Below, one piece after another: positions 967 through 14,063 of a stretch of DNA of 18,746 nucleotides. The notes beneath the pieces are model-generated. The model was not told the origin of the DNA. It did no database searches and saw only the letters and a program-made list of their open reading frames with translations. A program made the position numbers and the translations under genes. Where the stretch lies: assembly GCA_019844455.1 (NCBI GenBank), contig GCA_019844455.1_3938.2; one strand, given 5' to 3'. The DNA is from a phage. Positions within the stretch are counted from its first letter, which is position 1, and every line of letters starts with the position of its first letter.

Positions 967-3333
967 ATGCGCATGGTAAATGACCACGCAGAAGTGATTA
1001 AGAGTTCAACTTCTTTAGAGACGTCTCAAGCACAGATTACAATGACACCTGAGATGTTCAGCCTTTTGAGTTCTGGTGTATATACCTTTAAAGAAAGGGC
1101 AGTGATTCGTGAACTGTCATGTAACGCAGTAGATGCTCAGAAAGAAGCTGGAAAAGAGAACATTCCGTTCCATGTGCATTTACCTACTCGTTTTGAGCCT
1201 TACTTTGAAGTTCGTGATTTTGGAACTGGATTGACTCATGATAAAGTTATGAGTTTGTACCTAAACTACGGGGCTTCTACGAAGAATGACTCTAATGACT
1301 ACATTGGTGCAATGGGTATCGGCTCAAAATCCCCATTTGCAATTGCTCAGTCATTCACAGTATCTAGCTATGTTGATGGTGTTGTTAATAAGTACTCTGT
1401 TTATCTTGAGAATGGTATCCCTCAAGTAACTAAGCTGACCACTAACCCAACAAAAGAACCTAATGGTTTAGCTGTACGTGTGGCAGTTGCTGACCACCGT
1501 ATCTCAAAGTTCTTTGAAGAAGCTGGAAATGTGTACTCATACTTCACTGTAAAACCAGAAAGTAATATTGAGTACGACGATGTATTAGCAGATATGAACG
1601 TCATTGCCCGTGAAGAAGGTGTTTATGATGCCATGATTCATAAGCAAAGCTGGCGTTCTAGTGGTAACAGGACAGAGTTTAATGTGGTGATGGGTAATAT
1701 TGCCTATCCAGTGAACATGGAAGCATTACTTGGTGATGATTTCTTCAAAGTCTTGCCAGAGTTTTTCCGTAGGAGCGTAGACCTTGTAAACATCTACATG
1801 CCTATTGGTTCAGTTGCTATAGCAGCTTCTCGTGAAGCATTGCAGATGAATGATACGACAAAAAATGTTATCATCGAGGCTACCAAAAAGATAACTGAAG
1901 CAATTACAAAGGATGTTATCAAGAAAGTTAATAGCCAACCTACACTCATGGATGCTGCACAGGCTTATGCAGAGCTACGTTTGAACTCACGAGAGATGTT
2001 TAATGCTGTGTGTCCAAAGCTAGAGTGGGGAGGCATTAAGCTTGATTCTCTGGAAGAAGAATTGTTAAACATTCGTCGTGGAATTATCTACGCAGAAGAC
2101 GGCTCAGTCATTTATGAACGTGACGGTAAAGGCAATATTAAGGTTGATAGGAACGGGAACAATATCCCTAAAGTAGATTATCTTTATGACCCAGTTGCTT
2201 ATGTCAAGTTCAACTCTTTAGAGAGTAAGATTCGTGCAACATCGCTTTCCTACACTCAAGAGGCAAGTATGTTCAATATCTTTGGCGCAATGCGTAAAAG
2301 CCAAATTGAACAGTTTTTGTTTGTTATAAATGACCGTCGCAATAAAAACGGTACTGAGAAGACTGTAGGACGCAATCAAATCTTGCGTGGTGCATGTCGA
2401 GACTATGCCAGTGAGTCAGGCCTGTTCCACAGATACAACGGTATTGTGTTTGTATTCTCGACTGAAAAAGAGTTAGACGACCTAATCAATCTACACAAAC
2501 TTGATAAAAGCTTGTTAAAGATTGTGAAGATGTCTGATAAGGAACACCATTATCAGCGTAAAGAAGCTGTAAGAGGTGTTGTAAAACTCTGGAAAGCTGT
2601 TCCAGCAGAAGGTGTAGCTTCCTATAAAGAGGTGTCAGAAGACTTAGACACAATTGAAGAACCTCAACTTTATATCAAGGCAGTAGGTGATACTGTTGAT
2701 GGCGAATGTTTTTGCTCATCTCCAGAAGATGTAGCTAAGTCAGTTGCCAATGTCATTGGGAAGACAGTCTATGTTTTCCGAAAAGCAAATTGGAAAAAGA
2801 TACCAGAAGACTGGATTGAGGTAGATGAGAAGCTCTTGAACGACAGCTTAACTGATGTTCACTGGATTAATCATAACAGATATATGACACGTATCTATAT
2901 GAATGGCGTCCTTGACCTCACAAGCAGTTGGATTATTGCCAGAAACTTTACGTTCAATAACAGGAAGATTTCTCGTGGCTATTGCTATTCACGAGACACA
3001 AACAAAACTATCTTCTTAGAAGGCAATGAAGATGCTGTTGAGGCAATGTTTGGTAAAATCCAATACGTTGCTGCACCGTTTGCATACGCTTACACTATTA
3101 GTAGATTGCAAACTTTGAAAGAATGCCTTGACAATGATACAAAGTTGTACAAGAAAATTAAGAAAGCTGGTGACCGCATGGTCATTAAGGTGACAAACTA
3201 CCTTTCAAAAAGAAAACAAGAAAACTTCTTGCTTTCTCATTTAGATTGGAATAAAGTGTCACCTATTGAAGTGAGTAAGTTCTTAGGCTTTGATGTGAAG
3301 TGTGTTCCAGAAGGGACTACAATTTACGATTAA
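967..3333 (+). CDS. rIIA: rIIA-like protein (membrane-integrity / lysis-inhibition protector; N-terminal GHKL-like ATPase region)
   Basis: 788-aa ORF with RBS aagagga upstream. The N-terminal blocks AVIRELSCNAVDA and DYIGAMGIGSKSPFAIAQSFTVSSY parallel T4 rIIA (recalled as AVVRELITNMIDAH and DFIGGFGLGSKSPF...SITSY). Followed directly by an rIIB homolog. Confidence 0.9.
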   Translation: MRMVNDHAEVIKSSTSLETSQAQITMTPEMFSLLSSGVYTFKERAVIRELSCNAVDAQKEAGKENIPFHVHLPTRFEPYFEVRDFGTGLTHDKVMSLYLNYGASTKNDSNDYIGAMGIGSKSPFAIAQSFTVSSYVDGVVNKYSVYLENGIPQVTKLTTNPTKEPNGLAVRVAVADHRISKFFEEAGNVYSYFTVKPESNIEYDDVLADMNVIAREEGVYDAMIHKQSWRSSGNRTEFNVVMGNIAYPVNMEALLGDDFFKVLPEFFRRSVDLVNIYMPIGSVAIAASREALQMNDTTKNVIIEATKKITEAITKDVIKKVNSQPTLMDAAQAYAELRLNSREMFNAVCPKLEWGGIKLDSLEEELLNIRRGIIYAEDGSVIYERDGKGNIKVDRNGNNIPKVDYLYDPVAYVKFNSLESKIRATSLSYTQEASMFNIFGAMRKSQIEQFLFVINDRRNKNGTEKTVGRNQILRGACRDYASESGLFHRYNGIVFVFSTEKELDDLINLHKLDKSLLKIVKMSDKEHHYQRKEAVRGVVKLWKAVPAEGVASYKEVSEDLDTIEEPQLYIKAVGDTVDGECFCSSPEDVAKSVANVIGKTVYVFRKANWKKIPEDWIEVDEKLLNDSLTDVHWINHNRYMTRIYMNGVLDLTSSWIIARNFTFNNRKISRGYCYSRDTNKTIFLEGNEDAVEAMFGKIQYVAAPFAYAYTISRLQTLKECLDNDTKLYKKIKKAGDRMVIKVTNYLSKRKQENFLLSHLDWNKVSPIEVSKFLGFDVKCVPEGTTIYD

Positions 3334-3412: not shown

Positions 3413-4522
3413 ATGACTACTAAAACTAAAGCACAGATTGACGCAGAAATTTACAAACTGGTTAAAGAAGGTAAGCTGACTAAAACAGCTATTGCACAGA
3501 AATTTAATACTTCAACCCGTTCAGTCGGTCGTGCTGTAGAGCGTCACGAAGCAACCTTAAAAGGGAATAAGAAGGCAACTTCTACACCAGCTACGAAGAC
3601 TTTGAAACAAGTTGCTAAGACCTTTAAGAAGAAAGCTGACAAACCAGTTGAAAAGGTCGTTAAAGATGTTGTACAGAAAGCTCCAGTAAATAAACTGCAC
3701 GAAGCTATGCAGAAAGATGACAAGATTGAGTACATGATTACTGGTGATTCTGTAATTATGACTTATGGTTCAGAATCTGAAATTGTTGAGTCTACTCATC
3801 CGAACTATCAAGAGATTGTAGTTCATGTTGTGAAAGGTGAGTTCAAGAAAGCATTTGAACTGATGAACATTCGTAAGTCTATCGAAAACTTCACTCAGGG
3901 TGCTATCACAATCAAAGGCGACAAGCTATTCTACGGTGCTGTTGAGATGCGTTCTACTCTGGTTGACCGTATTCTTCACATGATGAAAACTGGTGATAAA
4001 GGTTTTGAACGACTTGTAATGTTCTTCGAAAAACTGATGGAAAACCCATCTAAAGATTCTGTAGAACAACTTTGGGGATTTGTATCTCACCTTGATGTTG
4101 AAATTGATGAAGAAGGTTACATCATTGGTTGGAAGAAAGTCTCTACTCGTGAAGGCAAGCTGGTTGACTCTCACACCTACAAAGTGCCTAATGATTTGGG
4201 TAACATTGTAGAAATGCCACGTTGGATGGTTGATAATAACCGTAACGTAACTTGCTCTCAAGGTCTTCATGTTGGTGCTTGGGATTATGTTCGTTGCTTC
4301 TCAGGTGATACAATCCTGAAGGTTCGCGTACATCCACGAGATGTTGTATCTGTTCCAACTGATTACAACGATATGAAGATGCGTTCCTCTCGTTATGAAG
4401 TTGCAGCAATCGTTGATAATCAACGTAAAGTGCTGGAAGCATGGGACGGTAAGACTGAAGCTTTGCATGTCATCGTTGGCACTGCTGGTGAACTCATCTC
4501 TCAACGTAAACGTGAAATCTAA
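3413..4522 (+). CDS. rIIB: rIIB-like protein
   Basis: 369-aa ORF, RBS gagag 7 nt upstream. The C-terminal two-thirds parallels T4 rIIB as recalled: ...MRSTLVDRIL..., ...ENPSKDSVEQLWGFV..., ...CSQGLHVGAW..., KVRVHPRDVVSVPTDYNDMKMRSSRYEV (T4: KVKVHPRDVVSIPIDYNDAKMR). Confidence 0.9.
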   Translation: MTTKTKAQIDAEIYKLVKEGKLTKTAIAQKFNTSTRSVGRAVERHEATLKGNKKATSTPATKTLKQVAKTFKKKADKPVEKVVKDVVQKAPVNKLHEAMQKDDKIEYMITGDSVIMTYGSESEIVESTHPNYQEIVVHVVKGEFKKAFELMNIRKSIENFTQGAITIKGDKLFYGAVEMRSTLVDRILHMMKTGDKGFERLVMFFEKLMENPSKDSVEQLWGFVSHLDVEIDEEGYIIGWKKVSTREGKLVDSHTYKVPNDLGNIVEMPRWMVDNNRNVTCSQGLHVGAWDYVRCFSGDTILKVRVHPRDVVSVPTDYNDMKMRSSRYEVAAIVDNQRKVLEAWDGKTEALHVIVGTAGELISQRKREI

Positions 4523-6880: not shown

Positions 6881-7152
6881 TGACACAAAGTAATGATGAA
6901 ACTTTCTACACAGAAGGTTACTTACTTCTACCGAGACCGAAAGATACTTACATGAGGATTGATTTCTTACCTACGATTATGGATAATGTAATGTGTCACA
7001 TCTTTATGCAAGGTATCACAGCACAGCTTAAGCATGTTGGTAAAGAGTGCAAAATAAAGGTTGACACTCATCCAGAAATCAAAGAGAATCACTACACATG
7101 GTTCCTACCAGACTCTAAAGAAATCTTAGCAGTTCTTAAAACGAGGAAATGA
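6880..7152 (+). CDS. hypothetical protein (90 aa)
   Basis: ATG overlaps the upstream stop (TAATG), suggesting translational coupling. No recognisable motif. Confidence 0.5.
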   Translation: MTQSNDETFYTEGYLLLPRPKDTYMRIDFLPTIMDNVMCHIFMQGITAQLKHVGKECKIKVDTHPEIKENHYTWFLPDSKEILAVLKTRK

Positions 7153-7154
7153 TT

Positions 7155-7463
7155 ATGCAATTCCAGCCAACAAATCGTGGATTTTCTTATGCAGAATTTA
7201 AAGATGCTAAAGGGGAAATTTGTACTTTACAAGAGAGTTCATCATACGAACCATGTATCTGGTTAGGTGCTAAAGAGGTCTCTGTTCAGTACCTAGATAA
7301 TGGCTGGAAAACACTTGATATCCCAGCATTAGTTGGTAAAGATTTTGTAGGTAATCAAAGAATGAAGCTCAATCAAGAACAGGTAAAAGAGTTGTTGCCG
7401 TACCTTCAATACTTTGCTGAAAATGGTGAATTACCAACAGAGGAACTTACAAATGCAGATTAA
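7155..7463 (+). CDS. hypothetical protein (about 102 aa)
   Basis: The track gives 7149. The ATG at 7155 is better spaced (7 nt) from RBS gagg at 7144-7147 and lies just after the upstream stop (7150-7152). Confidence 0.5.
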   Translation: MQFQPTNRGFSYAEFKDAKGEICTLQESSSYEPCIWLGAKEVSVQYLDNGWKTLDIPALVGKDFVGNQRMKLNQEQVKELLPYLQYFAENGELPTEELTNAD

Positions 7464-7779
7464 TGGAAGAGACTTTGTAGCCGTTTACTACGAGAAAGGT
7501 AAAGAAGTTGGCGTAGCGCAAGTATCTTATGGCAATGGTGGGTGGCTATATGGAACAATCGCAGTAGTTGGAACGAGAAGTGATACAAAAACTTTTAAAG
7601 ATTGTGTTGACCTTCTTGAAGAATCCATTCAGAATCATTGGTGTCTGATATGGATGACTGACAACGAAGTGATAGAACGCTTCAAAAAGATTGATATCAA
7701 CATTGATAGTATTGAGCATGTTGATTTATATGAGCTAACTGAGAAGGTAAACTATGAGAGTAATTCTAGCCAGAGATAA
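7453..7779 (+). CDS. hypothetical protein (about 108 aa)
   Basis: The track gives 7414. The internal ATG at 7453 follows RBS agagga and overlaps the upstream stop (7461-7463). Confidence 0.5.
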   Translation: MQINGRDFVAVYYEKGKEVGVAQVSYGNGGWLYGTIAVVGTRSDTKTFKDCVDLLEESIQNHWCLIWMTDNEVIERFKKIDINIDSIEHVDLYELTEKVNYESNSSQR

Positions 7780-7981
7780 AAAGACACGGAAACTCATCCG
7801 GTCAGCAGTATTCATTGGAAGAAATGAAGTCATCCCGTTTACAGCAAACGATGTGATAGCCTACAGGAAAAACTTAGTGTTTAGTGATTGCTTGCGTGGC
7901 TTCATCTCCCAACCGTTGGAAGACTTTAAAAGCCGTTGTGGTAAAGGTATCATCATTCAAGAGGCAATTATCAATGGCTGA
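7754..7981 (+). CDS. hypothetical protein (75 aa)
   Basis: RBS gagaagg upstream of ATG 7754; overlaps its neighbours in the style of a coupled operon. Confidence 0.45.
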   Translation: MRVILARDKKTRKLIRSAVFIGRNEVIPFTANDVIAYRKNLVFSDCLRGFISQPLEDFKSRCGKGIIIQEAIING

Positions 7982-8174
7982 CTTCTGCAAAGACTGTTCT
8001 ATCGAAATGTTCGGACGTGATACAGGTGACTTAAAAGGTCTTATCACTGAAGATGACTTTAAAGCTGGTTATGCAATGCCAGTAATCTGTGAAGGTTGTG
8101 GGTGCATCTGGGTAGACCACGAAGGACAACGTGTAAAACCTTCAGAAGACAAAGAATCTTGGGAGAGATGTTAA
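7974..8174 (+). CDS. small Cys-rich putative zinc-binding protein (about 66 aa)
   Basis: The track gives 7884. The in-frame ATG at 7974 follows RBS aagagg (7958-7963). Product MADFCKDCSIEMF...VICEGCGCIW carries CxxC and CxxCxC motifs. Confidence 0.45.
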   Translation: MADFCKDCSIEMFGRDTGDLKGLITEDDFKAGYAMPVICEGCGCIWVDHEGQRVKPSEDKESWERC

Positions 8175-8960
8175 ATGGGTATTGTAAAAATAATTAATGG
8201 TGATATCTTTGCCGCATTTGATAAAGGTAAGTTTGACATCATCGGTCACGGTTGCAACTGTATGAATTTAATGGGTGCAGGTATCGCTGACAAGATTTCT
8301 AAACTTTACCCAAAAGCATATGAGACCGATACAGAAGTTTATCTGTATGCAGGTGGTATAGGACACAAACCCTGTGAAAATTTACTGGGTAATTTCTCTG
8401 TAGCACGTTTAAAACAAGGTCGTATAGCTAACCTTTACACTCAGCTTAAGACTGGTAAAGATGCCCGATACAGTGCTTTAGAGTCATCTTTGAAACAGCT
8501 TAACAGATACTGTGAAGTTAATCAGTTGAAGAAGGTTGGTTTACCTATGATTGGTGCAGGTATCGGTGGACTTGAACCTCAAGCCGTCACAGTTATCATT
8601 AATCAGGTGATGAAGAGTGTAGATGTTTATCTGTATGTCTACGAAGGAGAGATGTACCACAAGTTACGCTCAGGTTGGAATAACTACTGTGAACCAGAAT
8701 ACTTTGCAGGTGTAGTAACGTTCAAAGATGATACAGTTACCCTCTTCAGACGAAGAAAAGGTAAGATACATCAAAGTAACCCTCCGGTTGAGAAGATGTC
8801 TCTAAGTAACGCTCTAGTTACCCACCTGTCGAAGAGCAATCACAGGATAGCCGTAACATTTGGCAGTGATGCAGATACATATATTTATGCAAGAACTGAT
8901 GAGGATATCGAGACGGTCTTCTCTTCACCAGAAGTTACCTTCTTAGACGCAAAGAACTAA
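8175..8960 (+). CDS. macro-domain (ADP-ribose binding/processing) protein with a C-terminal extension of about 100 aa
   Basis: IINGDIF...DIIGHGCNCMNLMGAGIADKI parallels the macrodomain core (recalled from YmdB as VQGDIT...VNAANpSLmGGGGVDGAIH). Later LPMIGAGIGG parallels FPAISTGVYG, and YLYVYE parallels YFVCYD. RBS gggagag upstream. Confidence 0.65.
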   Translation: MGIVKIINGDIFAAFDKGKFDIIGHGCNCMNLMGAGIADKISKLYPKAYETDTEVYLYAGGIGHKPCENLLGNFSVARLKQGRIANLYTQLKTGKDARYSALESSLKQLNRYCEVNQLKKVGLPMIGAGIGGLEPQAVTVIINQVMKSVDVYLYVYEGEMYHKLRSGWNNYCEPEYFAGVVTFKDDTVTLFRRRKGKIHQSNPPVEKMSLSNALVTHLSKSNHRIAVTFGSDADTYIYARTDEDIETVFSSPEVTFLDAKN

Positions 8961-8990
8961 GAAACTTTGTATAATATTCACAATAGACTA

Positions 8991-9034
8991 AGCCTTCCTT
9001 ATCTGGTAAATTTTTCAGGTAAGGAGGGCTTTTT
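8991..9034 (+). terminator. possible terminator (long-loop hairpin plus T-run)
   Basis: agccttcctta (8991-9001) pairs with taaggagggct (9020-9030) with one mismatch and an 18-nt loop, then ttttt. Weaker than the other terminators. Confidence 0.3.
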
Positions 9035-9213
9035 CATTTCAGGATTGTGCAGGTAGAGTTCTGTAGAGAAATCTGTAGAGAGAATTTTGAACTCCAAAGA
9101 GAAAATTCATTTTCAAACTGTGCAGGTAATCTCCAAAGAGCTTTTTCATTTTCAAAACGTGCAGACCCCGCTCAGGTCGGGCAAGAAAAATCATTTTAGA
9201 ATCGTGCAGGTAG
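9035..9213. repeat. four iteron-like direct repeats (about 21 bp, core GTGCAG)
   Basis: catttcaggattgtgcaggta (9035-9055), cattttcaaactgtgcaggta (9108-9128), cattttcaaaacgtgcaga (9147-9165), cattttagaatcgtgcaggtagg (9192-9213). Non-coding leader between a terminator and a strong promoter. Confidence 0.5.
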
Positions 9214-9236
9214 GTTTTTATAGAGAGCCAGACCAA

Positions 9237-9267
9237 CCCCTCTCCCCCTCTTACTCCACCTCTCCCC
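9237..9267. repeat. polypyrimidine (CT-rich) tract
   Basis: cccctctccccctcttactccacctctcccc is 31 nt with only two purines on the plus strand. Confidence 0.5.
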
Positions 9268-9366
9268 AAAAGTCAAGAGAAAAATTTGTAGCTGGTTGAA
9301 AAATAATTCTTGATTTGTGTTCTGTTTTGTGGTAGTCGTGCGCGCCCGTTCATTTCCCAACCTTAC

Positions 9367-9417
9367 AAAAAATATTTAATAAAAACCGTTGACACGCCAA
9401 ACAAGTTTACGTACTAT
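9367..9417 (+). promoter_or_regulatory. strong sigma70-type early promoter with an A/T-rich UP-like element; heads the small-gene array
   Basis: A/T block aaaaaatatttaataaaaa (9367-9385), TTGACA 9389-9394, 17-nt spacer, TACTAT 9412-9417. It is followed by a 5'-UTR hairpin gggc-aagcaa-gccc (9429-9442) and the shared RBS region (cctaaactggagaatcgaaaATG). Confidence 0.6.
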
Positions 9418-9466
9418 TTGCATCAGACGGGCAAGCAAGCCCACTTCCTAAACTGGAGAATCGAAA

Positions 9467-9673
9467 ATGCTTTATAGTCGTGAATTGATGGTTACAACTA
9501 ACGTTAACACAAAGGTAAAACGTTTTTACATGCAAGTATGTGGCGCATGGTCTAGAATATCAGAGGCTGACTATTGCAACTATGTAGAAACAGCTATAAA
9601 CTCTAATTGCTACCTTACAAGAAATACAAGAAAGTACATAAGACAGACAGCAGTTTATTACTACGATGCCTAA
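9467..9673 (+). CDS. hypothetical small protein (68 aa)
   Basis: First ORF after the strong promoter; preceded by the shared RBS region. No recognisable motif. Confidence 0.5.
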   Translation: MLYSRELMVTTNVNTKVKRFYMQVCGAWSRISEADYCNYVETAINSNCYLTRNTRKYIRQTAVYYYDA

Positions 9674-9681
9674 TAAAGTAC

Positions 9682-9764
9682 TTTACAAGGGGCTTAAAAG
9701 CTGATATCTTAAGCCCCAAATAAAGAGCTTTACCAAATCAACCCTTAAACTAGGAGATTCAAAA
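9682..9764 (+). promoter_or_regulatory. intergenic module type A, copy 1 (PeSL-like: -35, stem-loop, -10, shared RBS region)
   Basis: TTTACA 9682-9687; 9-bp perfect stem ggggcttaa/ttaagcccc (9689-9697 / 9709-9717); TATCTT 9705-9710 (17-nt spacer); then agataaagagctttacc...cttaaactaggagattcaaaaATG. No T-run after the hairpin. Confidence 0.5.
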
Positions 9765-10145
9765 ATGGCATATCGTGCACCTAAATTCATCAACAAAGAC
9801 AACTTTCGCAACGCACTGGAGAAGTCACTTGATGAGAATTTTAAAGGTAACGTTATTGTTGTTCACTCGTTTAATTTTAAGTATGATATCAATGGGAATA
9901 AAATTAACCATTACACGGCGACAATGCTAGATGGTACTCTTTCAAGTGAAAAAGCCATTTTACATGCACTTGCTGGACGTGGTAAAAACCTGATAAGATG
10001 CGATAAGAGACGTTATCAGGGTGGCGCATATGGTTACGATGATGCTGTTTATCATCTTGAAAATATGGGCTATCAAGTAGAAAAAGCTGGAGTGTCTCAA
10101 ATAATCGGTAGTGATGGTTATGTAACAATCTTCAAAATTAACTGA
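9765..10145 (+). CDS. hypothetical protein (126 aa)
   Basis: ORF preceded by the shared RBS region (GGAG 8 nt upstream). The 3' end (...aaaattaacTGA) runs into the next module. Confidence 0.55.
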   Translation: MAYRAPKFINKDNFRNALEKSLDENFKGNVIVVHSFNFKYDINGNKINHYTATMLDGTLSSEKAILHALAGRGKNLIRCDKRRYQGGAYGYDDAVYHLENMGYQVEKAGVSQIIGSDGYVTIFKIN

Positions 10146-10153
10146 TAAAGTAC

Positions 10154-10233
10154 TTTACAAGGGGCTTATAGTTCGATAAAGTAAGCCCCAGATAAAGAGC
10201 TTTACCACTAAATCCTAAATTGGAGATTCAAAA
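10154..10233 (+). promoter_or_regulatory. intergenic module type A, copy 2
   Basis: TTTACA 10154-10159; stem ggggctta/taagcccc (10161-10168 / 10182-10189) with 13-nt loop; then cagataaagagctttaccactaaatcctaaattggagattcaaaaATG. Confidence 0.5.
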
Positions 10234-10524
10234 ATGGCTACTATCAAAAACGTTGTAATTCCTGTAAAAACTCGTGATGACGCTCGCATCATGGCGAAAA
10301 AGTTAGGCGGGAAAGTGGTTGACAACGGAAAACAATCTGCTGTAAGATGGGGTGTGAAGGCTGATAAACAGTTGAAGTTAAAAAATTCACCAATAAATCT
10401 TTTTACATGTGTAAACACTATCGGAAAGACAAATGTATACACGAAAAAGGCATATATTAGACGCGTAGCCTTAACATCTCCAATTCGTACAATGAGAGGT
10501 TATGCAAAGCTGAAAATTAACTGA
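10234..10524 (+). CDS. hypothetical basic protein (96 aa, K/R-rich)
   Basis: ORF with the shared RBS region. Lys/Arg-rich throughout; its C-terminal codons (...aaaattaacTGA) match those of the 9765 gene. Confidence 0.55.
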   Translation: MATIKNVVIPVKTRDDARIMAKKLGGKVVDNGKQSAVRWGVKADKQLKLKNSPINLFTCVNTIGKTNVYTKKAYIRRVALTSPIRTMRGYAKLKIN

Positions 10525-10532
10525 TAAAGTAC

Positions 10533-10612
10533 TTTACAAGGGGCTTAAAAGTTGGTATCTTAAGCCCCAGATAAAGAGCTTTACCACTAAATCCTAAACT
10601 GGAGATTCAAAA
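10533..10612 (+). promoter_or_regulatory. intergenic module type A, copy 3
   Basis: TTTACA 10533-10538; stem ggggcttaa/ttaagcccc (10540-10548 / 10560-10568); TATCTT 10556-10561 (17-nt spacer). Near-identical over about 90 nt to the copy at 12196-12282. Confidence 0.5.
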
Positions 10613-11835: not shown

Positions 11836-11924
11836 CACTGATTTTTAGATAGATTAAATTACACATCAACGGGGAGGGAACAACCTTCCCACTAAATAAA
11901 GTCCTTAAACTAGGAGATTCTAAA
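11832..11924 (+). promoter_or_regulatory. intergenic module type B, copy 1 (sigma70-like promoter, 5'-UTR hairpin, shared RBS region)
   Basis: TTGACA 11832-11837, 17-nt spacer, TAAATT 11855-11860, hairpin gggaa-caacc-ttccc (11876-11890), then actaaataaagtccttaaactaggagattctaaaATG. Confidence 0.55.
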
Positions 11925-12197
11925 ATGTATACTACTAACAATGGCCTCACTTTGAACGTCACACTACGTCACTATGTAGATGGTGTCATGCACTTTGAAG
12001 ATTTACAAGCTGAACAACATATCTTAGATTGGCAAGTCGCAGGACTCCAAAAAACTGCTACGGGATACGGTAAAAAGATTCCAACTAGTTGGAAAGTTCA
12101 CTATGAAGGACGTTTGCGCAGAATTTATCAAGATGTGCAAAGCAATAGCGCATCGAGTTACATTATAGTAAAAGGTGAAAAACTGCATTTAGTATAA
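11925..12197 (+). CDS. hypothetical protein (90 aa)
   Basis: ORF with the shared RBS region. No recognisable motif. Confidence 0.5.
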   Translation: MYTTNNGLTLNVTLRHYVDGVMHFEDLQAEQHILDWQVAGLQKTATGYGKKIPTSWKVHYEGRLRRIYQDVQSNSASSYIIVKGEKLHLV

Positions 12198-12202
12198 AGT
12201 AC

Positions 12203-12282
12203 TTTACAAGGGGCTTAAAAGTTGGTATCTTAAGCCCCAGATAAAGAGCTTTACCCCTAAATCCTAAATTGGAGATTCAAAA
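12203..12282 (+). promoter_or_regulatory. intergenic module type A, copy 5
   Basis: Near-identical to copy 3 (two substitutions that I counted over about 90 nt): taaagtactttacaaggggcttaaaagttggtatcttaagccccagataaagagctttacccctaaatcctaaattggagattcaaaaATG. Confidence 0.5.
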
Positions 12283-12687
12283 ATGGCTATTAATAATCGT
12301 GAGTTATCAATCTTAAAAGCACGTTTAACCGTTAATCGAATCAATGTTATCACGTCATCAGCACCAGACGAGACATTACACAACATTATCGGGAAGATTC
12401 AAGGTGTTATCTTAGACGTTGAGAATGTAAAAAACTCATTAGCAGACGTTGCAGCAGGTGTTACACTAGACGGCGCACAATATGAAATGATTGACATGTT
12501 AGGCAAATCAAAGGTTATGAATAAAGAGTTAGACTTAAAAATGTTTCGATTTGCCGTGAAAGTATGGCTATCTGTCGAGTATGATGCTAATTTTGCAATT
12601 GCTGATTTCTTTGCCACTTGGTTGCAACGTAACTTAACAAATCATGATTTTCGTGATATCTGTGATGCAATTTACGCAGAACTTTAA
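12283..12687 (+). CDS. hypothetical protein (134 aa)
   Basis: ORF with the shared RBS region. No recognisable motif. Confidence 0.55.
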   Translation: MAINNRELSILKARLTVNRINVITSSAPDETLHNIIGKIQGVILDVENVKNSLADVAAGVTLDGAQYEMIDMLGKSKVMNKELDLKMFRFAVKVWLSVEYDANFAIADFFATWLQRNLTNHDFRDICDAIYAEL

Positions 12688-12695
12688 AAATTTTA

Positions 12696-12787
12696 TTGAC
12701 ACTGATTTTTAGATAGACTAAATTACACATCAACGGGGAGGGAACAACCTTCCCACTAAATAAAGTCCTTAAACTAGGAGATTCAAA
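12696..12787 (+). promoter_or_regulatory. intergenic module type B, copy 2
   Basis: TTGACA 12696-12701, 17-nt spacer, TAAATT; differs from copy 1 by about two substitutions over about 90 nt. Confidence 0.55.
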
Positions 12788-13330
12788 ATGAAATGCTTTC
12801 ACGGTACTACTCAAGAAAACTTTATCAACCTGATTAATAACGGTGATAAACCATCAGGTGTATGGAATTGTTCGGATATGGACGGCAATTTTTACGTGTA
12901 CCCAGAAAATAAACTCTATGGTGATGATGAGGAAGAGATAGCATCGGAAGGTATCCAGCAAGCTCTAGGAAATGCCACTATCACGGCAGCTTTTCAGATG
13001 AAAACTCAAAATATTGTTATCTTAGAACTTGACATTCCAGAGGATGAGCTAAATGATGATTATTCTTGTGATAACATGTCAAATATAGCAAGCTTTACAG
13101 AGTACTTTGATGTAAATTGGATTAAAAAGGTCTATACAACAGAGTTCAACGCTATGTATTCACCTTTTTGTCTCCCTTCACTGGATAACCCAAATTTAAA
13201 TTATCTTGATGAAACATTGGAGCTACTTGCTAAAAGTATCCAACAATCCGACAGTATTCAGGTTTTTTGTGACATCATGGATACACTGACAGAAAACATT
13301 GTAGAGAGTGATTTAAAGGTCTTTTTCTAA
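12788..13330 (+). CDS. hypothetical strongly acidic protein (180 aa)
   Basis: ORF with the shared RBS region. Very Asp/Glu-rich with few Lys/Arg. Confidence 0.55.
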   Translation: MKCFHGTTQENFINLINNGDKPSGVWNCSDMDGNFYVYPENKLYGDDEEEIASEGIQQALGNATITAAFQMKTQNIVILELDIPEDELNDDYSCDNMSNIASFTEYFDVNWIKKVYTTEFNAMYSPFCLPSLDNPNLNYLDETLELLAKSIQQSDSIQVFCDIMDTLTENIVESDLKVFF

Positions 13331-13630: not shown

Positions 13631-13721
13631 ACAAGCCTGATAAAAGTCTGTAAATTACACATCAACGGGGAGGGAATGACCTTCCCCACTAAATAAAGTC
13701 CTTAAACTAGGAGATTCAAAA
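13628..13721 (+). promoter_or_regulatory. intergenic module type B, copy 3 (degenerate -35)
   Basis: TAGACA 13628-13633 (overlaps stop TAG of the upstream gene), 17-nt spacer, TAAATT 13651-13656, hairpin gggaa-tgacc-ttccc, shared RBS region. Confidence 0.45.
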
Positions 13722-14063
13722 ATGGCTTATGTAACCGTAATTACCGATAAAGCTGGCTCATCTTGGTCAACTCAGGTTAGTGATAAGATGTCGCCTATGC
13801 AGTGCCTAAAATACTTTGAGCAGTGGAACAAAGGCGAGGATGTAAGCCCCTTTCAAGTGATGCAAATCATCCATACAGATAACGAAGGGAATAAAACGAC
13901 CTTGAACAGTGAATACTACGCAAGCCGTTTTGAAACGAGAAGTAAAACAATGAAGCTTTTACGTGAATCCGGCTATTCTCATATTGCCGCGCTAATCTGG
14001 GATGACCTGCTAAAAAGCCAGCGTATCAGCTATGTAAAACCTGAAAAAATATTCATCAGTTAA
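13722..14063 (+). CDS. hypothetical protein (113 aa)
   Basis: ORF with the shared RBS region. No recognisable motif. Confidence 0.55.
   Translation: MAYVTVITDKAGSSWSTQVSDKMSPMQCLKYFEQWNKGEDVSPFQVMQIIHTDNEGNKTTLNSEYYASRFETRSKTMKLLRESGYSHIAALIWDDLLKSQRISYVKPEKIFIS

Follow-up and report, generated by a model that had tools for sequence, protein, structure and literature searches.

Phage-encoded macrodomain proteins have recently been linked to the host defence system DarTG2. A preprint of November 2025 identified tk.4 as the single significant conditionally essential gene of phage T4 on a DarTG2 host and reported that T4 became sensitive to DarTG2 once tk.4 was cleanly knocked out; its authors gave the gene the name adfM (bioRxiv 10.1101/2025.11.20.689424). 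A chimallivirus macrodomain, separately named AdfM in a 2026 paper, removes the ADP-ribose placed on DNA by DarT2, and the chimallivirus AdfM proteins retain the active-site Asn and Lys (PMC13309987). Among cellular macrodomains, SCO6735 of Streptomyces coelicolor strips DarT-installed ADP-ribose from thymidine in single-stranded DNA (ssDNA), more efficiently than DarG or TARG1 (PMC9411070). Here we analyse a 261-residue macrodomain protein encoded in an 18,746-nucleotide stretch of phage DNA (contig GCA_019844455.1_3938.2; hereafter the 18.7-kb window), the source of which is a Felixounavirus, a Felix O1-like virulent myovirus. We propose that the protein is a counter-defence enzyme of the AdfM kind that is expressed early; its most likely function, which we hold to be probable but far from secure, is to take DarT2-attached ADP-ribose off phage ssDNA with a macrodomain of the lysine-less, Gln type.

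The N-terminal macrodomain and its active site

An earlier note on this DNA had assigned about the first 160 residues to the macro fold, and sequence and structure comparisons agreed on this point. Pfam PF01661 (Macro) matched residues 25–141 at 31.2 bits against a cut-off of 22, and a profile of 26 homologues searched against the Protein Data Bank (PDB) retrieved TARG1/OARD1 at E 3.6e-17, together with Mycobacterium tuberculosis and Thermus aquaticus DarG, yeast Poa1p, SCO6735 (E 6.8e-15) and BT1257. The AlphaFold2 (AF2) model of the whole protein (predicted local distance difference test score 91.6, predicted template modelling (TM) score 0.89) bore out a three-layer alpha/beta/alpha macro fold when compared with the PDB by Foldseek, which placed TARG1 first (target TM 0.86, E 4.7e-11), followed by Poa1p and the DarG macrodomain; the PDB gave 242 matches at E<=1e-3, and of the 50 listed almost all were macrodomains. 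DarG was also the top NCBIfam match (NF048014, E 2.3e-12, residues 7–162) and the sole match in the PADLOC defence library (E 6e-13, macro part only).

Conservation within the family was read from an alignment of 26 sequences. The invariant residues are H25, G26, N28, C29, M33, G36, A38, the N86-L-Y-T-Q90 block, P124, G127 and G129, and both glycine-rich ADP-ribose loops, M33-G-A-G-I-A38 and I126-G-A-G-I-G131, are retained, being invariant or nearly so. The earlier note had said that a fold other than macro, or missing glycine-rich loops in an alignment, would overturn its assignment; neither was seen. The invariant N28 occupies the position of TARG1 Ser35 and is presumably equivalent to DarG N22, a named active-site residue (PMC13309987). 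HMMER paired NLYTQ with TARG1 Y-L-I-T-K84 and GAGIG131 with G-C-G-L-D125, and MAFFT gave the same pairing with a TARG1 sequence that agrees with the PDB chain. TARG1 K84 corresponds to DarG K80 and to Gln85 of SCO6735; mutating Gln85 abolishes SCO6735 activity, and lysines in the loop that follows it aid DNA binding (PMC9411070). The glutamine of the phage protein, Gln90, is invariant across the family and by transitivity through TARG1 K84 would be the counterpart of SCO6735 Q85; its loop reads Q90-L-K92-T-G-K95. By analogy with SCO6735, such a Gln active site is compatible with thymidine-ADP-ribose hydrolase activity.

Replacement of the catalytic pair relative to TARG1 (K84 to Q, D125 to G) could also mean that hydrolase activity has been lost and that the protein binds ADP-ribose without catalysis, as a sponge or a sensor. 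We consider this very improbable: SCO6735 carries the same Gln, is highly active and depends on it; NLYTQ is invariant in the family and the macrodomain has a ratio of nonsynonymous to synonymous substitution rates (dN/dS) of 0.03; and T4 Tk.4, which has the same motifs, has a DarTG2 phenotype.

Relationship to T4 Tk.4 and probable function

The relative with a known genetic phenotype is Tk.4. BLASTP against RB32 tk.4 aligned query residues 3–157 with Tk.4 residues 2–152 (35% identity, E 2e-24), and T4 Tk.4, itself aligned with the family, showed the same HGCNC, NLYTQ and PRIGAGIG motifs. In the Felix O1 record the gene is described as similar to the T4 '17.5 kDa protein in tk-vs intergenic region', and tblastn with residues 1–160 matched 2,848 of 50,697 phage records, tk.4 of T4-like phages among them. 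The family PHROG 335, labelled 'phosphatase', covers the full-length protein (E 3.5e-112). On homology the gene is best filed under the Tk.4-type AdfM family.

DNA de-ADP-ribosylation is the best-supported function because three lines of evidence point to it: the homology to Tk.4/AdfM, the SCO6735-like Gln active site, and DarG as both the defence-library and the top NCBIfam match. The earlier note had offered reversal of ADP-ribosylation of phage DNA as one possible role, and that part of its interpretation gains from this evidence; the support that it drew from nearby NadV is weak (see below). In the mechanism that we propose, the N-terminal macrodomain would bind ADP-ribose through its two conserved glycine-rich loops and hydrolyse the ADP-ribose put by a host DarT2-type toxin on thymidines of single-stranded phage DNA, and this removal would let phage replication resume. 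Catalysis may follow the lysine-less, Gln-dependent route of SCO6735, with Gln90 positioning the substrate and a water network and no Schiff base being formed.

A TARG1-like eraser acting on proteins or RNA, directed against another host ADP-ribosyltransferase (ART) defence such as CmdTAC-type ADP-ribosylation of mRNA or ARTs that target proteins, would fit the identity of the best sequence and fold match, TARG1, and SCO6735, with the same Gln, acts on proteins too (PMC9411070); the fast-evolving C-terminal domain described below could recognise a protein target. Against it, the Lys84/Asp125 dyad that TARG1 uses on Glu/Asp-linked protein ADP-ribose is missing, SCO6735 is reported to use a different mechanism on protein substrates (PMC9411070), and in T4 the homologue alone gave a significant hit for DarTG2. 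A Pfam scan found no DarT or other ART among the 20 flanking window open reading frames (ORFs), the neighbours being small phage ORFs of unknown function. We regard such an eraser as unlikely.

ADP-ribose 1''-phosphate (Appr-1''-p) is the substrate suggested by the gene's database label 'phosphatase'. A phosphatase of this kind, working in RNA repair alongside the nearby PNK-like gene, is suggested by the presence of Poa1p, an Appr-1''-p phosphatase, among the top fold matches, by the PNK-like ORF of the window (Table 1) and by the annotation of T4 Tk.4, 'contains A1pp phosphatase motif'. That label stems from annotation transfer and not from an assay: macrodomains used to go by the name 'A1pp phosphatase motif', as the T4 tk.4 note shows, and many GenBank records owe the word 'phosphatase' to it. 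Moreover, Appr-1''-p is a product of 2'-phosphotransferase reactions of the Tpt1/KptA type and not of T4-type Pnkp/ligase repair, and no KptA or ligase gene adjoins the macro gene, so we give this role hardly any weight.

Several points weigh against DNA de-ADP-ribosylation itself. The protein lacks the classical catalytic Lys as well as the Asp, scores 46.9 bits with the NCBIfam DarG model, whose equivalog cut-off is 250, and shares no more than 35% identity with Tk.4. Tk.4 has nothing analogous to the C-terminal domain, which shows no detectable similarity to the toxin-binding domain of DarG and whose homologues share no consistent charge or isoelectric-point signature hinting at DNA binding or mimicry of DNA. 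Some relatives adjoin NadV or Prs, which fits a metabolic role equally well. The support from T4 is a single preprint and consists of a phenotype, not biochemistry, and we found no literature joining Felixounavirus with 'macro domain' or the Felix O1 group with DarTG2. The substrate range of macrodomains is, moreover, not readable from sequence (Iyer et al. 2022, PMC9503650).

Fold, family and likely function had all been described before, so the advance is incremental. If the proposed function is correct, the AdfM strategy against DarTG2 would extend from T4 and the nucleus-forming phages to a third large myovirus group, and the lysine-less Gln-type macrodomain would be the common phage solution. 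Felix O1-type phages serve in biocontrol and typing of Salmonella and E. coli, and knowing which defences they neutralise helps to predict host range.

A fast-evolving C-terminal domain

Downstream of a linker helix (residues 158–167) lies the part that the earlier note had called unrecognised, a description that proved right. Residues ~170–261 matched no Pfam family, solved structure or viral model; residues 161–261 searched alone gave no convincing match in Pfam or PHROG scans; and Foldseek of the domain against BFVD returned only the SUSP2 orthologue. A C-terminal profile run against 1.84e9 representatives retrieved, apart from hits that we rejected, only two-domain macro proteins or their fragments. 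The rejected hits were spurious, multi-stretch matches to long proteins, and the two examined more closely proved to be beta-propeller-like repeat proteins. A tblastn search located the domain in 243 phage records of Felixounavirus, Suspvirus and Mooglevirus, always in the same gene, and it is also present in divergent metagenomic relatives that keep the synteny rIIA, rIIB, SLT-like, PNK-like and, further on, macro. As judged from these searches, the domain is confined to Ounavirinae and always fused to the macrodomain.

The two parts of the protein evolve at different rates. Nearer homologues share 46–54% identity in the C-terminal domain against 76–81% in the macrodomain, and farther ones 15–24% against 38–52%; among 17 close alleles dN/dS is 0.20 in the C-terminal domain and 0.03 in the macro part. 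The dN/dS values and the faster divergence together indicate purifying but relaxed selection, and the domain is therefore real, constrained and fast-evolving.

In one Felix-type genome from IMG/VR (L028), the flanks are ~93% identical to the window and the macro gene allele (259 residues) is only 41% identical. Comparison of L028 10143–10934 with window positions 8318–9145 revealed no DNA similarity across the macro gene body and terminator; the replacement starts at about codon 48, just after the HGCNC/MGAGIA motif region, and runs through the terminator. An allele swap in an otherwise near-identical genome is a pattern typical of arms-race genes.

Two candidate relationships for the domain were rejected. 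A DarG-type second domain would have extended the DarG matches, which cover only positions 4–152 of 338 and 18–145 of 329 of the models. The macro protein of Erwinia Ounavirinae (L029 8483–9265) has 260 residues and a C-terminal extension of ~100 residues, and hhalign gave this extension a probability of 0.2% of homology to the Felix-type domain. In the same Erwinia protein, Gln replaces the otherwise invariant His25 (AQGCNC).

The rate of evolution, and analogy with the second domain of DarG, suggest that the C-terminal domain may serve partner or substrate targeting; this beta-rich stretch of ~100 residues would then be an accessory module that binds, for example, ssDNA, the replisome or the toxin. 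A bolder idea, which we consider doubtful, is that it is a new fold binding DarT2 or another variable host defence protein, so that the whole protein would act as an 'orphan antitoxin' combining enzymatic erasure with stoichiometric inhibition, DarG-like by function through an unrelated module, with allele swaps retuning its specificity. As far as the searchable literature shows, neither the fused, orphan-fold, fast-evolving domain nor the allele replacement had been described. As a counter-defence enzyme that has gained such a rapidly evolving accessory module, the protein would be a tractable case to study.

Association with NAD-salvage genes

The earlier note had placed the macro gene in the same region as nadV and had argued from their proximity. 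The 3' end of nadV is indeed in the window, its product identical (100%) to residues 465–593 of the NadV of phage Ro111lw, and the order Prs, NadV, two small ORFs, rIIA, rIIB, eleven ORFs, macro holds for the window and Ro111lw. The argument from proximity is weak: NadV and macro are separated by 7.8 kb and at least 15 genes, including rIIA, rIIB, the PNK-like gene and about a dozen small ORFs, so that the macro gene is neither adjacent to nor co-transcribed with nadV, and we rejected on distance a functional link drawn from the window alone. In T4 there is no NadV within 5 kb of tk.4, and T4 is not known to encode NadV.

The co-occurrence of the two genes across phages, which the earlier note had suggested checking, was examined in 79 IMG/VR loci encoding relatives, for NadV and Prs within 10 kb on either side. 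All Felix-type loci that extend far enough have Prs–NadV within this distance, owing to shared synteny. Outside Ounavirinae, NadV lies within 10 kb in 5 of 54 loci, two of which are the same sequence. Vibrio phage Bennett (L005 4129–7135) has the macro gene flanked by Prs and NadV. In L070 and L072 an NMNAT/Nudix-like gene, a SLOG (YAcAr) gene, NadV and macro follow one another, and the NadV stop overlaps the macro start (L070 cluster 7047–10456, on a 247-kb contig). In L082 (7894–10456) a NADAR gene stands between NadV and macro, which directly follows it. By alignment, the NadV-adjacent macrodomains also have the Gln motif. The link of this macro type to NAD-salvage genes is thus real and recurrent, though a minority pattern, and it agrees with what Iyer et al. 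2022 (PMC9503650) reported from a comparative survey.

These neighbourhoods bear on another possible role, in which the protein is a helper of NAD+/ADP-ribose salvage that converts soluble ADP-ribose derivatives (O-acyl-ADP-ribose, ADP-ribose 1''-phosphate, or the cyclic or conjugated ADP-ribose signals of host NADase/TIR defences) to free ADP-ribose, destroying signals, feeding the Prs–NadV route of the phage to NAD+, or both. The placements in Bennett, L070/L072 (downstream of Nudix and SLOG genes) and L082, and the Prs–NadV genes of the Felix-type loci, would suit it, and phage Macro, NADAR and SLOG domains have been argued to prefer soluble ADP-ribose derivatives (Iyer et al. 2022, PMC9503650). 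Set against this are the distance to NadV in the window and the low count outside Ounavirinae, and the sole genetic phenotype of a family member is DarTG2-specific. No defined step of NARP1 or NARP2 is known to require a macrodomain. In the literature searched, no phage macrodomain with activity on Thoeris signals turned up. Macro and NadV are, besides, each common in medium and jumbo phages, occurring in 40–56% and 22–33% of them, respectively (Iyer et al. 2022, PMC9503650), and counter-defence genes are prone to cluster anyway. We judge a salvage role improbable for the Felix-type protein.

The association itself fits either a metabolic or signal-degrading role or a clustering of NAD-related counter-defence genes. 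We favour the second because of the pairing of NADAR with macro and the T4 phenotype; NADAR is an anti-DarT1 enzyme class (PMC11825919). In such a cluster, NARP2 would act against NAD+ depletion, NADAR against DarT1 and the macrodomain against DarT2. That macro genes of this type recur next to NadV, Prs and NADAR in other phages suggests that counter-defence genes centred on NAD form clusters.

Locus and neighbouring features

Over the region 7500–9800, DNA identity is 99.4% with Escherichia coli O157 typing phage 1 and 93.8% with Salmonella phage Felix O1; the whole window is matched by 283 phage records, among which Escherichia and Salmonella phages predominate. Gene order is as in Felix O1, with rIIA (967–3333), rIIB (3413–4522), an SLT-like ORF, the PNK-like ORF and small ORFs. 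The macro gene is the homologue of Felix O1 ORF13 (Felix01p025), labelled 'phosphatase' in Felix O1 and 'macro domain protein' in E. coli O157 typing phage 1. Present under one or other of these names in ~240 Ounavirinae phage records, it belongs to the core genes of Felix O1-type phages and was annotated long ago. Coordinates are collected in Table 1.

Table 1 Features of the macro gene and its surroundings, in window coordinates
Feature	Position	Strand	Basis or description
Macro gene, complete coding sequence, ATG start, 261 aa + stop	8175..8960	+	ORF list
Macrodomain, residues 1–157, ALC1-like / TARG1–DarG–SCO6735 class	8175..8645	+	Pfam, NCBIfam, PADLOC, PDB profile search, AF2 + Foldseek
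Motif 1, H25-G-C-N28-C...M33-G-A-G-I-A38, first ADP-ribose-binding loop	8247..8288	+	Alignment, common to T4 Tk.4
Motif 2, N86-L-Y-T-Q90	8430..8444	+	HMMER alignment to TARG1, MAFFT
Motif 3, P124-M-I-G-A-G-I-G131, diphosphate-binding loop; G131 in place of TARG1 Asp125	8544..8567	+	Alignments
C-terminal domain, residues ~170–261	8682..8957	+	Six beta-strands, helix, short final strand
Ribosome-binding site GGGAGAG, 7 nt upstream of ATG	8161–8167	+	Sequence
66-aa CxxC...CxxC zinc-ribbon-like ORF (Felix O1 ORF12 homologue, PHROG 2210)	7974..8174	+	ORF list, PHROG
Intrinsic-terminator-like hairpin, 17-bp stem + T-run	8990..9031	+	Sequence
PNK-like ORF	5149–5844		Gene order as in Felix O1
nadV 3' end, last 129 codons + stop (context only)	2–388, stop ends 391	+	Translation
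Intergenic module copies	9670–9770, 10145–10238, 10524–10586, 11903–11927, 12194–12287, 12767–12788, 13700–13726		~100-bp module between small genes

The TAA (8172–8174) of the 66-residue ORF directly abuts the macro ATG, and the two may be translationally coupled. With this abutting ORF upstream and the hairpin downstream, the macro gene is therefore the final cistron of an early-region transcription unit that runs rightward. 'Terminator' features are annotated in the records of phages KhF2, KhF3 and XTG1 within the region matching 7500–9800. In a distant relative (L003, 7810–8001), a 63-residue CxxC...CxxC ORF of unrelated sequence holds the same coupled position, so that in the window and in L003 alike the stop of a small zinc-ribbon-like ORF touches or overlaps the macro start codon. 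This small ORF could be a partner of the macro protein, or the arrangement a coincidence.

Behind the terminator (9034–9226) stand four direct copies of a ~20-nt core, TCATTTT(C/A)nnA(T/A/C)(T/C)GTGCAG(G/A), at a spacing of 39–58 nt, in a stretch of ~800 bp that holds no convincing ORF and has no Rfam match; the copies may form an array of operators or promoters. They are followed by a strong sigma-70-like promoter, TTGACA-17-TACTAT (9389–9417), which precedes a 68-residue ORF at 9467. Among the small genes between 9.6 and 13.7 kb, an intergenic module of ~100 bp with a hairpin (at 9674–9732) and a promoter-like site is repeated, in L028 as well, and looks like a repeated terminator/promoter cassette between single-gene units. 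At ~15440–17150 (~1.7 kb) there is no ORF of at least 70 residues, the coding strand turns from + to − and the GC skew changes sign. tRNA and Rfam scans of the window gave no match; Felix O1 is known to carry tRNAs in another part of its genome. Finally, a record named 'Staphylococcus phage SA1' (GU169904.1) and Campylobacter phage records contain ~92%-identical Felix O1-type sequence including the macro gene; they are probably chimeric or contaminated assemblies, not host jumps.

Comparison with known systems

Like T4 Tk.4/AdfM, the Felix-type protein belongs to PHROG 335; the two share 35% identity over the whole of Tk.4, the three motifs and the Gln at the catalytic-Lys position, and both genes lie in the early-gene region of a virulent enterobacterial myovirus. 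Tk.4 differs in being a stand-alone macrodomain of 155 residues, whereas the Felix-type protein adds ~100 residues without a T4 homologue, and its anti-DarTG2 activity is predicted from homology. With the AdfM of chimalliviruses (PhiKZ gp104 and relatives; PMC13309987) it has in common that it is a phage orphan macrodomain of the DarG2 type, in which the first-motif Asn is apparently conserved. Those proteins, in contrast, keep the DarG catalytic Lys (K78) where the Felix-type protein has Gln, have no equivalent C-terminal domain and are imported into the phage nucleus. Felix O1-type phages are not known to build such a nucleus.

Among proteins from cells, SCO6735 (PDB 5E3B; PMC9411070) resembles the phage protein in being ALC1-like, in having Gln for the catalytic Lys and no TARG1-type Asp, and in carrying lysines in the loop after the Gln (K89 and K93, against K92 and K95 in the phage protein, at a different spacing); it is, unlike the phage protein, cellular, single-domain and DNA-damage-regulated, and the similarity is at profile level only (E 6.8e-15). 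DarG of DarTG2 (PDB 5M31, 5M3E, 5M3I; NF048014) has the same macro fold, ADP-ribose loops and logic of a macrodomain joined to a second domain, but the phage protein falls far below its model cut-off (46.9 against 250), has Lys80 replaced and ends in a domain dissimilar to the DarT-binding domain, nor did a DarT gene turn up next to its own gene. Human TARG1/OARD1 (PDB 4J5R), although eukaryotic, single-domain and distinguished by Lys84 and Asp125 where the phage protein has Q90 and G131, is the best match in both sequence and structure (E 3.6e-17, TM 0.86).

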